64,000 nucleotides of DNA from Eledone cirrhosa. Its lineage: Eukaryota. The notes beneath the pieces were generated by a model. It did not search any database, was not told the DNA's origin, and saw nothing but the letters and a program-made list of their open reading frames with translations. The translations under genes were made by a program, and so were the position numbers. The stretch is taken from contig OZ024741.1 in NCBI GenBank assembly GCA_964016885.1, positions 73,656,001 to 73,720,000 on the forward strand. The letters are read 5' to 3'. Positions 3,541-58,074 of this stretch are shown piece by piece. The stretch's first letter is position 1, and every line of letters begins with the position of its first letter.

Positions 3541-3799
3541 TCTCAGTATATATATATATATATATACAGGTATATATATATATATATATATATATATATA
3601 TATATATATATATATATATATATATATATATATATATATATATACATATACATATATATATATATATATATACATATATCTATCTTTGCTACGGCCCTTG
3701 ATAAACCTGTTTCTTCATCCACTCTCATCCCAGGAACAGTTTTGATAGCGCCAGTTTGTGATTTAAATTCAGGAATTTTATATTCTTTGAATGAAAAGA

Positions 3800-3883
3800 A
3801 CCTTCTGACGAGAATCTTTCTTTGCAACGAAGGCCGTATGGTCTCCGTTTTATTTTTGGGATTCGAAACCGATCGGTAAAGGT
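3800..3883 (+). ncRNA. Type I hammerhead ribozyme, canonical core
   Basis: ACCTT-CTGACGA-GAATCTT...GGGATTC-GAAA-CCGATCG-GTA-AAGGT: helix I ACCTT/AAGGT, 53-nt helix II region, palindromic helix III ACCGATCGGT, GUA triplet. Confidence 0.85.
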
Positions 3884-4004
3884 AACTATAGTAGGTAAAG
3901 TCAATTTTTTTAAATTTATTTTGAAACTTTTTCATTATTTGCTAAACCTTGTTTATATATATATATATATATATATATATACATATATATATATATATAT
4001 ATAT

Positions 4005-4992
4005 ATAAGTTGAAAAAAAAAAAAAAAAAACGAAATTTCATTTCTCACTCTTAGTATGGCACTTACTTAAATGTAAGTATGTATGTATACGTACATACAT
4101 ATATGTATACAGACGTACAGTAGCATGCATATATATATATATATATACATACATATACATATATACATACAGGTACATATACATATATGCACGCATCAGT
4201 TTAGCGGACGCTTATTATAACGCCGCTTTGTTCGTTTGTAAACAAACTGAACAGCCTGAATTTATGCCATACACCGTATGGCATAAATTCAGGCTGTTCA
4301 GTTTGTTTACAAACGAACAAAGCGGCGTTATAATAAGCGTCCGCTAAACTGATGCGTGCATATATGTATGTGTACCTGTATGTATATATGTATATGTATG
4401 TATATATATATATATATATATATATATATATATATATATATATATATATGCATGCTACTGTACGTCTGTATACATATATGTATGTACGTATACATACATA
4501 CTTACATTTAAGTAAGTGCCATACTAAGAGTGAGAAATGAAATTTCGTTTTTCTTTTTTTTTTTCAACTTATCGTTTTCGGTATGCCTGACCGATTTAAC
4601 TCACTCAATATGCAAATTAGGCTGCTCAGCCGTTAATTTTCATAAGGAAAGTATATACTTTCGAACGTTCAACTATCTGGCAGATGGGTAAACGGTGCTG
4701 ATGATAGCTAACAAGCTTGAAACTAGTACATCGTTCCTGTGTCAGTGTTGAACAAAAAGGTGACGTGGTTGCCTTAACACCGTATGGCATAAATTCAGGC
4801 TGTTCAGTTTGTTTACAAACGAACAAAGCGGCGTTATAATAAGCGTCCGCTAAACTGATGCGTGCATATATGTATGTGTACCTGTATGTATATATGTATA
4901 TGTATGTATATATATATATATATATATATATATATGCATGCTACTGTACGTCTGTATACATATATGTATGTACGTATACATACATACATACA
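4005..4992 (+). mobile_element. Non-coding hammerhead-bearing element (family B): fold-back arm plus ~1.4 tandem units of ~506 bp
   Basis: Inverted arms 4005-4272 / 4276-4572 with a 3-nt loop. Direct repeat ACACCGTATGGC... at 4271 and 4777. One hammerhead per unit. Flanked by (TA)n. Confidence 0.8.
4692..4734 (+). ncRNA. Minimal type I hammerhead ribozyme
   Basis: ACGGTG-CTGATGA-TAGC.TAACAA.GCTT-GAAA-CTA-GTA-CATCGT: helix I ACGGTG/CATCGT, helix III palindrome ACTAGT. Confidence 0.8.
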
Positions 4993-5275
4993 TTTATATA
5001 TATATACATATATATATATATATATATATATACATATATACATATATATATATATATATACATATATATATATATATATATATATATATACATATATATA
5101 TATATATATATATATATATATATATATATATATACATATATATATATATACATATATATATATATATATATATATACATATATATATATATATATATATA
5201 TATATATATATATATATATATATACATATATATATATATATATATATATATATATATATATATATATATATATAA
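4993..5275. repeat. (TA)n microsatellite with CA interruptions
   Basis: Direct inspection; one of many such tracts. Confidence 0.95.
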
Positions 5276-5512
5276 TTAAGTTAATTGTTTAAGCGTCAGT
5301 CATACAAAAGTGAGTTACAAACGAAACGAAATTTAATTTCGTTTCGTTATTTGTTTTTATTGTATATATATATATATATATATATATATATATGTATATA
5401 CATATTTATATATATATATATATATATATATATATATATACATATATATATATATATATATATATATATATATATATATATATATATATATATATATATA
5501 TATATATATATA

Positions 5513-5890
5513 GTTAAAAGAATAGAGGTGTAACACACAAGTTATTATATATTGGTAAACGGAATAGAAAATGCTGACAAATTGTTCACAGTTGAAAAAT
5601 GGTTTAATTAGGAATAAAAGAGTATTAGTGATTGTATGGGTTAGTATTCAGTTGTGGTTTTAAGTTTTTAAGTTTTTACCGGTTGCGCATTTCTAAATGC
5701 TTTTCAAAAATAATTTTGAGATAGAGTGTCCGTGCTGTTTGCTCTGATCTGTAAAACCGGTAAAAACTTAAAAACTTAAAACCACAACTGAATACTAACC
5801 CATACAATCACTAATACTCTTTTATTCCTAATTAAACCATTTTTCAACTGTGAACAATTTGTCAGCATTTTCTATTCCGTTTACCAATAT
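5513..5890 (-). mobile_element. Fold-back insert with degenerate hammerhead
   Basis: Apparently perfect ~135-bp inverted arms 5549-5684 / 5754-5890 and an unpaired tail at 5513-5548. Minus strand 5672-5711 reads TTGAAAA-GCATTT.AG.AAATGC-GCAA-CCG-GTA. Confidence 0.7.
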
Positions 5891-54689: not shown

Positions 54690-55085
54690 CTTTACTATGA
54701 ATTACCCGTATTTTGTTTAATTTCATTGTTTTCAATATTTGTATTATTTTGACTCTGCTTCCAAAGAATTATATCGTTGAAATTTTGTATTTTAAACTTT
54801 GCTTCACGACATCTTCTACATACGGATTACATTGAGTTCTTCATACGGCGTGGACCCTACCATTAATTGGACGATTTATCTGTGTATATAATTATATATA
54901 TATATATATATATATATATATATATATATATATATATATATATATATATATATATGTATATATATATATATATATATATATATATATATATATATATGTA
55001 TGTATATATATGTATATATATATATATATATATATTTTTTTTTATATATATATATATATATATATATATATGTGTGTGTATAAAT

Positions 55086-55701
55086 ATAAATTCAGCGAGA
55101 ATCGTATTTCGGCTGGTAGAAAAAGCGAAACGAAACGCAAAATCGTAGAAATGCTGGCAAGCGCTCCAATAGTTAAGAAAACTAGAGCTAAACAATATGT
55201 TAAAACGCCATACAAACTGAAAAAGTGGTCAAGAAGGCATTAACCACGGAAGCCAAAAAAACAAATCAAGCTAAACAAGTCAAACAAAATAAATGATAAA
55301 AACAGACCTGGACCCAAATGGAATTGATGGTAAAATCCAAATGCAGGGTTTCTATGACACTTAAATCAATAATACTGTCTGCTTAAAACTATAAGCTTTC
55401 AGAATAAAGTTCGAACAAGGAATATCACGTTATCAACAGGTATTTTGCTCTGTAACCAACTTTGTGAGTGACGGAGAACTTTGTAAAAGCACATGTGTAA
55501 CTCACAAGGGGAAATTCCCCAGATTTTGGCAAATGAATTCAGTATGTGTAAATCATACAAAGAATTGCATGGATAGCACAAATCGAATAAGCACTCAACC
55601 TGGTAGTTTTTAAAATAAACTTATGCAATTAATCTGTCAATAGAATTATTAACAGGTTAATTGTAAGACTCGGGAGATTAATACAAACATAAATTCAGCG
55701 A
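55086..55701. mobile_element. Terminally redundant non-coding element, 603-bp unit
   Basis: ATAAATTCAGCGA at 55086 and 55689; colinear conserved blocks with 17611-18291. Confidence 0.75.
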
Positions 55702-56458
55702 AGAAATACTGATGATAGTCAGAAGATCACTAAAAATAGAGCAAGAAACCAGGATTATCCGTCATCAGTGATCTTCTGACTATCATCAGTATTTCTTCGC
55801 ATTAAAGACCAGATACCTCAAGTCAGTGCGAGCAATAACTAAAATAAGTTATTGGGATAAAAAGAATTGGGTGGAGAAAGAGAGACATGTAAACAAACAA
55901 AAATGATATAGCAACGTAATATATGCATGTATATATATATATATATATGTAATAATAATAAAATTGAAGACTAAAATCCAAAGAGGGCTCGATAAGGAAA
56001 ATATATATCAAATATATAAGAACCGTAGAGCAAATATTTATTAAAATAACAGATTAAAGTTTAAGCAAAGAATCGCTGCTTTCACCCTTAACGGGATCTT
56101 CTGAAACTAACAAAGTCAATCTGTAAACGCAGAACTGGATATTTCAAAAAACGTTGCAACCGGAGGAAGACAGGAAGACGATACTTTGGTTCGTGGTAAC
56201 GTTCGCTGGCAAAGAACGGGAAAAAACGAATAATACGTCTATAATAGGAGCGGTGAAAAACAATTACGCGCAAAGACAGAACCACGTTTATGGTATAAAA
56301 GAGGTCGTAGACTAATGTTCTCTTAGGTGGTGCATAGAGACGTTCTCTGTCAATGAACGAAAAAGCGAAGATAATAAGTCATATGTGGAGCGTGAAGAAC
56401 AATAGCACGCAAAGACAAAACCACGTAAATGGTATAGCAGAAATCGTAGACTAAAATT

Positions 56459-56901
56459 CTAACTAGGAGACCAAATGAATCTCCGCTACAGAGTTAAGGA
56501 CAAAGTAAATAAATACAATACAGAAGTAATAGAAACAAATAAATACATACACGCAAACAGATACGTACATACACAAGCATACGCAAAACCTTACCATGGG
56601 TATACAAAACCACGCACATATAAATATGTGTGTGTGTGTATGCTTGTGTACAAATAAATAAATAATTATATAAACGTATATAAGTAAATAAATACGTATA
56701 TAACAAGCGCACACGCATACCTACATATAAATACACGAATGTTCGGAGACGTAAGTCAACTAAAACAAGAAGTACACATATACACACACCCACCATACGT
56801 ACGAACCTGCACACTCACGCGGACGCAAAACTCCCGTATACACATAGCCAAACCCTAAATACCAAAATATGTAGCGGAGATTCATTTGGTCTCCTAGTTA
56901 G
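56459..56901. mobile_element. Segment bounded by perfect 32-bp inverted repeats (MITE or fold-back arm)
   Basis: CTAACTAGGAGACCAAATGAATCTCCGCTACA / TGTAGCGGAGATTCATTTGGTCTCCTAGTTAG; no clear TSD. Confidence 0.55.
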
Positions 56902-57148
56902 TATATAATATTTGGGAAACCGTATATACTTTCATATGTTTTATATATATGTACAAAATAATATATGTTTTTCTAATGATATGTGGTTTTAAACATACAC
57001 ACACACACAAATATATATATATATATATATATATATATATATATATATGTGTGTGTGTGTGTGTGTGTGTGTGTGTGTGTGTGTGTGTGTGTATCTGTGT
57101 GTGTGTGTGTGTGTGTGTGTGTGTGTGTGTGTGTGTGTGTGTGTGTGT

Positions 57149-57287
57149 AGGAAAAGAGTTGTCGAAACGGCCGGAGCTCAGCCGTCAGGGGTCCTGAATC
57201 TTTTCCTATTACCCACTCTTATGCTCTGAGTATCGATTACTCTGGTGCGTTATGGTCCACCTGCTATCTTACCACACCTTCTTTGTT
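57149..57287 (+). mobile_element. Family A insert with very short inverted arm
   Basis: TAGGAAAAGA / TCTTTTCCTA; GAAACGGCC...GCCGTC; tail. Confidence 0.75.
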
Positions 57288-58074
57288 ATATATATATATA
57301 TATATATATATATATATATATATATATATAAACGTGTGTGTGTGTGCGTACGCGCGACCAATTGAGCGTGTATGTGTGCCTGTGTATGTATAAATAGTAG
57401 TTAGTGTGGATACCCAGACATACATCCATGCCATATTTAGTTTGCTATAGATATATTCAAAGGTATATTTTATTACATAAAATTTTATAGTAGGATAAGT
57501 TGTAAGGGAATTTTTTCTTCACTAAACATGTGATATGCCGTGGTGTGAAAAGAAGGAAAAATTTCACTTTAGAACTAACACATTACATCTTTACACACAC
57601 TTACACACACACACCCACCCACACACACACACACACACACACACACACACACACACACACACACACATATATATATATATATATATATATATATATATAT
57701 ATATATATGTGTGTGTGTGTATATATATATATATATTTATATATATATATATAATATATATATATTTATATATATAATGCTGCGTTTATTCACACGAATA
57801 CATGTTTCCCGCAGATACCGAAAGAAACACCCGCTGCCAAGGTGACAGAGGAAAAAAGAAACATTTATGATTGTGTTAATGGGACTTTTACGATCCACTC
57901 AAACGCCATTTTGAATTGCAAAAAATTTGTTCGCCTAGCAACAATATATATGCTATTCCCTTTTTCTATAATTTCGAATACAAACCTCTATTTCTGTATC
58001 CATACGTACATATATATATTTATTTGCATGTGTGTATGTATGTTTGTATGTTTGTATGTATGTATGTATTCCTA

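Follow-up and report, generated by a model that had tools for sequence, protein, structure and literature searches.

Hammerhead-bearing inserts in the (TA)n tracts of Eledone cirrhosa: truncated Penelope-like elements alongside non-coding tandem units that are likely copied by the same kind of enzyme

What kind of element places hammerhead ribozyme motifs, over and over, between the (TA)n tracts of a cephalopod genome? The question is raised by a 64,000-nucleotide stretch of Eledone cirrhosa (contig OZ024741.1, 73,656,001 to 73,720,000), here called the window, in whose own coordinates features are given below. A first-pass annotation had read the inserts between 3675 and 57290 as a community of non-coding, retrozyme-like elements. 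We are confident that the inserts fall into two classes: truncated 3′ ends of autonomous Penelope-like elements (PLEs) and non-coding tandem units of the retrozyme type. Taken as a whole, it is likely that the non-coding class is copied by a PLE enzyme from RNA of unit length, which would probably be circular.

The motifs themselves are well beyond chance. With a type I descriptor, permitting C3U/G8A cores and one mismatch at the base of stem II, the window yields 10 strict motifs (cores at 3805+, 4698+, 12928-, 14115-, 14628-, 16799-, 18876-, 36948-, 37300+ and 46649-), compared to a mean of 0.27 (maximum 1) in 30 local dinucleotide shuffles of the same 64 kb. Four belong to PLE ends (families D, E, F and J), five to non-coding tandem units and one to family N. 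A looser setting gave 12 motifs against 0.6 in shuffles (maximum 2); two of the 12, at 40217+ and 44458+, look like chance matches. Permitting a long stem II gained 54053- at the cost of specificity (19 motifs against a shuffle mean of 4.25). Near-complete motifs also lie at 18422+, 46801+, 54053- and 54571+, the last having a long stem II; those at 18422+ and 54571+ were read off the sequence. The count of about 18 first given for the window is reached only if the decayed or half motifs of families C, K, O and R are included. Core-like words at 21726, 33255, 40199, 46391, 52707 and 55709-55789, as well as within the frames of long interspersed elements (LINEs), form no hammerhead, and an Rfam scan of the window returned no hammerhead among the best 150 of 496 matches, those being microsatellite noise; (TA)n makes up 8% of the window. 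In most motifs stem III is short and its loop palindromic, as in the dimer-type architecture of PLE ribozymes (PMC4209133).

The window is not a special cluster. On a regular grid over the larger contigs we took sixty 10-kb stretches (600 kb in total), which contain 92 strict motifs compared to 2-3 in five shuffles. At 153 per Mb this equals the density of the window, which is therefore a typical sample, and the notion of a community particular to this locus is not borne out. At least one motif was present in 31 of the 60 stretches, and 43 of the 92 motifs are in tandem. Extrapolated roughly from this sample, the genome holds several hundred thousand hammerheads. Pattern searches of the host genome, covering 3.0 Gb, gave 75,900 matches in sum for seven ribozyme patterns (B, F+N, D, E, A, G and Lf), each with 0 for its reversed control.

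The first class was defined by what its other copies do. Because genomic copies elsewhere continue into coding sequence for reverse transcriptase (RT) and the GIY-YIG endonuclease, we assign families D, E, F, I, K and P to the 5′-truncated ends of autonomous PLEs, and J and R likewise on one locus each; the proposal that all families are non-coding fails for these, on the very ground that the first-pass annotation had named as refuting it. The window copy of K (24916..26903, minus strand) is a 5′-truncated PLE with an inverted pseudo-long terminal repeat (pLTR), an RT plus GIY-YIG frame at 25567-26646 and an aberrant hammerhead near 25147. The 113 scored copies of K are 92-98% identical (window copy 100%), with an open frame of up to 923 amino acids; this single frame matches RVT_1 (E 4.9e-11) and, at its C terminus, GIY-YIG (E 4e-4, just under Pfam's cut-off). 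Family E (13861..14473, minus strand; U3-A8 core at 14115; 2,052 matches) corresponds to the 3′ untranslated region (UTR)/pLTR of an autonomous PLE; in 16 of 28 loci, PLE coding on the same strand lies upstream of it at family-typical distances, in RT-like and GIY-YIG-like frames. These frames gave no Pfam match and no phmmer match to K, and the E-type protein is, as judged from its sequence, distant from that of K; its look-alikes in Atlas (0.94-0.96) carry HTH_animal/RVT_1.

For the remaining families of this class, the link to coding sequence varies in depth. Family D (12825..13766, minus strand; core 12928; 16,364 matches) is a two-armed 3′ end, of which two copies (L116 and L130) run on together into a GIY-YIG frame. 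Family F (14526..15290, minus strand; core 14628) is the 3′ part of a 3′ UTR of about 2 kb; 3 of 19 long copies reach the endonuclease, two loci (L330/L331) are continuous over 3 kb, and L331 is laid out as inverted pLTR, RT, endonuclease, 2-kb UTR and hammerhead. Family I (18375..18463, plus strand; a weak hammerhead with its core at 18422) is an extreme 3′ end; in 4 of its 16 loci, GIY-YIG coding precedes it by 236-359 bp, again at family-typical distances. In family P (53865..54892), a two-armed 3′ end broken up by other repeats, the hammerhead has a long stem II (54571+, 54053-); two near-duplicate loci (L073/L074) have endonuclease, UTR and P ribozyme in order. A near-perfect 169-bp palindrome lies inside the P insertion (54230-54398) and is probably another fold-back end. 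The fold-back end J (18745..18940; core 18876, minus strand) has a single coding locus, L230, which runs into the C terminus of the endonuclease and has a UTR in common with L058. The fold-back ends of R (18524..18722, with further copies at 10849-10995, 15490-15637, 37779-37842, 53325-53521 and 57153-57284) are usually cut within hammerhead stem II; the full ribozyme is present in L114 and L193, and L193 alone reaches the C terminus of the endonuclease.

Two families are less readily placed. Family C (5512..5886, minus strand), a fold-back 3′ end with a variant (GCAA) hammerhead and a relative of D, is likely a PLE end too, on suggestive evidence only: at one locus (L210) a GIY-YIG frame lies 1 kb upstream, a weak connection with microsatellites in between. 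Family N (46459..46897), a fold-back with two hammerheads (46649-, 46801+), is a sister of F, and one common ribozyme pattern serves both (28,364 matches for F+N); N is in tandem in 3 of 44 loci and has PLE coding upstream in 3 of 44, at unlike distances. Most copies of D, F, N and R are short 3′ stubs. Four other families, M, S, T and Z, had either too few copies to be classified or no ribozyme in the window copy. An isolated GIY-YIG fragment of yet another PLE lies at 2430-2900 (plus strand).

The second class looks quite different. Each unit of families A, B, G and Lf carries a type I hammerhead, no family-linked open reading frame (ORF) or PLE match was found within the units of these families or of H/Q, and we regard A, B, G and Lf as non-coding head-to-tail units of the non-LTR retrozyme type. 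Family A (3675..3953, plus strand; core 3805) is represented in the window by a 5′-truncated copy of a unit of 481-487 bp, which elsewhere (1,343 pattern matches) forms arrays of up to 10 units in one orientation. Family B (4008..4996, plus strand; core 4698) is two-armed, with an inverted arm at 4017-4272 and a direct arm at 4271-4996; its unit of about 466-538 bp contains an internal (TA)n tract, is spaced at 456-538 bp in arrays and accounts for 27,068 ribozyme matches in the genome (0 for the reversed control). Family G (16625..16977, minus strand; core 16799; 520 matches) is an older relative of B, in tandem in 1 of 20 loci. Family Lf (36700..37634; cores at 36948- and 37300+; 189 matches) is a two-armed insertion of a unit of about 539 bp, in tandem in 2 of 25 loci. 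Further hammerhead tandem families, incomplete in the window, have units of 310, 556 and 526 bp (L201, L227, L206, L182); a fold-back fragment at 49257-49413 is a relative of the 310-bp family.

Families H and Q are tandem and non-coding without a canonical hammerhead. H (17613..18291, minus strand) consists of a 605-bp unit plus a 78-bp repeat, with 290 matches and arrays spaced at about 605-630 bp, including a long one near C1:150.1 Mb; Q (55083..55800, minus strand) is its 603-bp relative, and a lone end of the H/Q family lies at 1690-1742. No conserved CUGANGA core was present in 37 aligned H/Q sequences, and Rfam gave 0 matches on H. H/Q probably works like a PLE passenger, but we do not file it as a retrozyme. 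The superfamily has a conserved GAAACCC flanked by a possible stem, and one array (G000:C1:150.08-150.12 Mb) extends over about 19 kb with heterogeneous units.

Several families are not independent of each other, and "at least 10 families unrelated in sequence" was an overstatement: B and G are 70% identical, C and D are 78% identical at the ribozyme, H and Q can be aligned across the whole unit, and F pairs with N. The unit lengths first proposed likewise come down to only five elements: 506 bp is that of B, 539 that of Lf, 605 that of H and 603 that of Q, while O gives both 472 and 496. Those of B, Lf and H stand; the 603 bp of Q reflects a short terminal repeat only, and the values of 470 and 496 both come from the single duplicate O (49713..50500, minus strand; 33 matches), an old 1.6-unit duplicate with offsets of 472-496 and about 67% identity that carries a decayed, permuted hammerhead-like motif. 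In O, both in the window and at loci L280-L294, the hammerhead words are permuted into the order GAAA, cleavage triplet and CUGANGA-like core, a type II topology with an ambiguous stem II.

What joins the two classes is the way they are inserted. In both, an insertion has either a single arm or two arms placed back to back, the 3′ ends fall at two fixed points separated by a short "tail", the 5′ ends are scattered, and TA lies on either side; these flanks had been noted at first pass and were confirmed for the window inserts that were read. The inverted 5′-truncated arm, the pLTR and the tail at one end are features of PLEs. For B we examined 51 arms in 27 loci. The 3′ end fell at unit position 477-482 in 24 arms, at 408-430 in 25 and elsewhere in 2, two-armed insertions usually having one arm of each type; the 5′ ends were spread from 1 to 430, and nearly all 3′ flanks were TA runs. 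Window inserts of D, C, J, K, N, P and R have the same unequal ends, and tails in this genome, read from inserts, measure about 35-160 bp. According to Frangieh et al. (PMC11167929), the two-start tail arises because the RT can begin at either of two internal sites; PLE tails together with inverted arms and a (TA)n preference are described by Craig et al. (PMC8557442). This footprint suggests that a PLE enzyme very probably mobilises the non-coding units. The earlier description of non-autonomous, PLE-copied small-RNA elements thus suits A, B, G, Lf and H/Q, whose non-coding tandem units carry a PLE footprint in TA, but not the roughly equal number of families in the first class. At one locus (L005:1742-1987), the (TA)n tract within a B unit has received an R-family PLE end, an instance of an element-borne microsatellite as target. 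The idea that B seeded most TA tracts was dropped, given about 27,000 units versus about 1,340 tracts (at least 8 TA) per Mb.

We propose that the PLE GIY-YIG endonuclease would cut within (TA)n and that reverse transcription would begin at either of two internal RNA sites, which make the tail, from one or both DNA ends, mostly stopping early. For the non-coding units, the template might come from transcription that reads through the units and that, in B and G, likely starts at an internal U6-type promoter. The transcript would be cut at successive hammerheads, probably as dimers, and the monomer closed into a circle. An RT running round such a circle could lay down arrays of identical units.

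For B and G, the sequence suggests how such a transcript might start. In the window, a U6-promoter-like 12-mer (4609) and a TATA box (4652) form a predicted promoter at 4609..4657 (plus strand), upstream of the B hammerhead, with a predicted transcription start near 4682, just before stem I. The same arrangement, about 90 nt before the ribozyme core, precedes 47 of 53 B cores and 12 of 21 G cores, and the 12-mer stands at -77 to -79 in all three distinct U6 upstream regions examined. In the 600-kb sample it occurs 11 times, always within B-type sequence; it is absent before the cores of A (0 of 30), Lf (0 of 18) and D, E or F/N (0 of 93), Lf having only a shorter octamer in 8 of 18 cores. Alignment of whole promoters between U6 upstream regions and units revealed nothing convincing beyond the motif. 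On balance we think that the B/G promoter is active, with moderate confidence. Contigs from four of six sequencing runs, all of unspecified kind, gave cover in three runs and none in the fourth, a result that does not bear on expression. The host has a tandem cluster of about 30 U6 small nuclear RNA (snRNA) genes, at 1.8-kb spacing, at G000:C19:31.78-31.84 Mb.

Homogeneity within arrays speaks to the template. With the microsatellite zone left out, B units within an array differ on average at 0.74 positions, 20 of 34 pairs being identical, compared to 14.3 differences and 1 identical pair in 401 between arrays. In the related 310-bp family, all 111 within-locus pairs are identical, inverted arm included, with 4 differences between two loci. 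Family A has 0.2-0.25 differences within two long arrays and 4 in a third pair, compared to at least 11 between arrays. Near-identity within arrays together with divergence between them (A and B) therefore points to a bottleneck of one unit at insertion, for which a circle is the simplest source. Folded as circles, the units have z scores of -9.1 for B and -2.5 to -4.1 for the others (Lf -3.1, A -2.5).

Several observations weigh against this account. The fixed ends of B do not coincide with the ribozyme cut (position 159), nor are its 5′ ends enriched there, and no autonomous element with the same ends as A, B or Lf was found. The spacing from 12-mer to TATA is shorter in B/G (43-44) than in U6 genes (47-49), and B units contain runs of T4 or longer that an RNA polymerase III (Pol III) transcript would need to read through. 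If the template had been edited as RNA, scars might be expected; B has no excess of A>G (13, compared to 15 T>C), and D (10 versus 9), E, Lf and H likewise have no excess of A>G over T>C. In L206, an array of 556-bp units, variants recur in units that are not neighbours, which makes it a mosaic, and the B array L168 has a periodic two-unit pattern, so that not every array is the product of one template. H units differ by 2-7% within insertions, compared to 11% between them, and H/Q arrays form without a canonical hammerhead; since the Anolis PLE did not need its own ribozyme in vitro (PMC11167929), cleavage may not be needed.

These last points, from L206 and L168 to the Anolis result, also favour an alternative in which the units are PLE passengers, the arrays arise by linear read-through, template jumping or local duplication, and the hammerhead is mostly an idle relic with no circle formed. 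Consistent with that, eight of nine Xenopus retrozyme dimers failed to cleave (10.64898/2026.07.22.740005). The difficulty is that near-100% identity within arrays, multi-unit inverted arms included, against about 3% divergence between them would require a one-unit bottleneck at every insertion, and that the B unit is strongly self-paired. We consider this alternative unlikely, although it is the strongest of the rivals, and for the circular template itself we would claim slightly better than an even chance.

A second alternative takes all inserts to be pseudo-LTR remnants of autonomous PLEs, with no separate non-autonomous class. It does hold for six to nine families, and the many short 3′ stubs of D, F, N and R speak for it. 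For A, B and H it is refuted by arrays in which 3-12 whole units follow one another without any frame from one ribozyme to the next; moreover, none of 30 B-centred loci matched the K protein, and PLE matches found later near B lie at scattered distances. As a general explanation it is thus very improbable. Least credible of all is the converse, that every hammerhead insert is a non-coding retrozyme-like small RNA, since, although most window inserts have no ORF and lie between TA tracts, families D, E, F, I, J, K, P and R have copies elsewhere that run on into PLE coding, which refutes it for those families.

One can envision a bolder version of the preferred reading, copying of non-coding units by a PLE enzyme, in which the genome, with its several hundred thousand hammerheads, harbours a guild of self-promoting circular retro-RNAs, B having captured a U6-type promoter, its transcript being cut and closed into a circle of about 480 nt, and a PLE RT rolling round this circle from both ends of one break to write it into TA repeats. 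We put this forward tentatively, as somewhat less probable than its negation. Were it correct, the genome itself would prove directly that a telomerase-related RT can retrotranspose by rolling circle, the (TA)n tract of B would seed targets for other elements, H/Q would be a case in which the ribozyme is not needed, and hammerheads would be far denser here than in the salamander record.

The window also contains repeats of other kinds. A broken non-LTR retrotransposon at 32813-36094 (minus strand) encodes an RT (Pfam RVT_1) followed, at the C terminus, by a motif of the restriction-like endonuclease type; it resembles elements of the R4/Dong clade. Two LINE RT fragments, 85% identical and each between TA tracts (19818-21088 and 37877-39136), are presumably RTE-like. 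Broken frames at 60351-61865 (minus strand) look to us like a Helitron Rep protein, with no Pfam match for the piece tested. A short interspersed element (SINE)-like repeat of about 200 bp is present in about a dozen copies, some in tandem (9666-10160, 15745-16128, 24497-24618, 47289-47413, 48095-48540, 49447-49660, 54053-54208 and 59579-60143), and also interrupts U6 upstream regions (L344, L349). A 47-bp minisatellite of about 11.5 copies occupies 41786-42344.

How do these elements compare with known systems? Non-LTR retrozymes have been found in corals, mussels and axolotl, and the same work points to PLEs as what probably mobilises them (Cervera and de la Peña 2020, PMC7229834); in 2014 circular templates had already been put forward for PLE copies longer than one unit (Cervera and de la Peña, PMC4209133). 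Li, Clavereau and Pollet (2026) describe animal retrozymes as non-autonomous PLE derivatives, from co-occurrence and Xenopus trees, with no mollusc sampled in the portions available (10.64898/2026.07.22.740005). The concept of animal retrozymes as non-autonomous PLE partners is thus already in print for vertebrates, corals and mussels; mobilisation by the PLE enzyme via circular RNA is, in the same portions, proposed without being shown. For cephalopods, our search of the literature on hammerheads turned up only Craig et al. and a twister paper, although supplements, Dfam or Repbase may hold the families; a 2026 repeat annotation of Octopus vulgaris does not mention hammerhead or ribozyme in its main text.

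Like the metazoan non-LTR retrozymes of these reports (PMC7229834; 10.64898/2026.07.22.740005), the second class consists of non-coding tandem units of a few hundred bp with one type I hammerhead each, low in GC, self-paired and co-existing with PLEs; the U.U mismatch at the base of stem II is also seen in axolotl HHR_Amex2. The units here, at 470-620 bp, exceed in length the invertebrate retrozyme RNAs of 170-400 nt reported in 2020 (PMC7229834), and the parts of those papers at hand mention no (TA)n targeting, two-armed insertion or tail end for metazoan non-LTR retrozymes. H/Q, unlike those retrozymes, has no canonical hammerhead. The ribozymes here are of the minimal PLE type, at about 150 per Mb.

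We know of no PLE footprint in newt satellite 2, which is otherwise a close parallel to B and G. It is a hammerhead tandem repeat cited as having an internal snRNA-type promoter (PMC2220036) and is reported to be transcribed by Pol II, whereas the motif and TATA box of B/G match U6 genes. H/Q finds its counterpart in the non-autonomous PLEs of Chlamys, such as MRC1 (PMC8557442), non-coding passengers in multi-copy head-to-tail insertions without canonical hammerheads; these differ in being green algal and in having 3′ ends in common with an autonomous partner, for which no counterpart was found here. The first class closely follows the endonuclease-positive PLEs already described (PMC4209133; PMC8557442; Frangieh et al. 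2024, PMC11167929), with RT plus C-terminal GIY-YIG, a hammerhead near the 3′ end with a palindromic loop III, and mostly single, 5′-truncated copies with an inverted upstream arm, a tail at one end and a (TA)n preference; it departs from them in its tails of about 35-160 bp, compared to the 30-40 bp reported, and in 3′ UTRs of up to 2 kb. A hammerhead between TA tracts is as often a PLE stub as a retrozyme. With autonomous PLEs and non-coding units side by side under the same footprint, a young RT frame of 923 amino acids and the two presumed RT starts on the B RNA mapped, the copying step becomes testable in vitro. The elements belong to two known kinds, and their value lies in the scale at which they occur and in the shared footprint, which opens PLE-driven, probably rolling-circle, copying to test.

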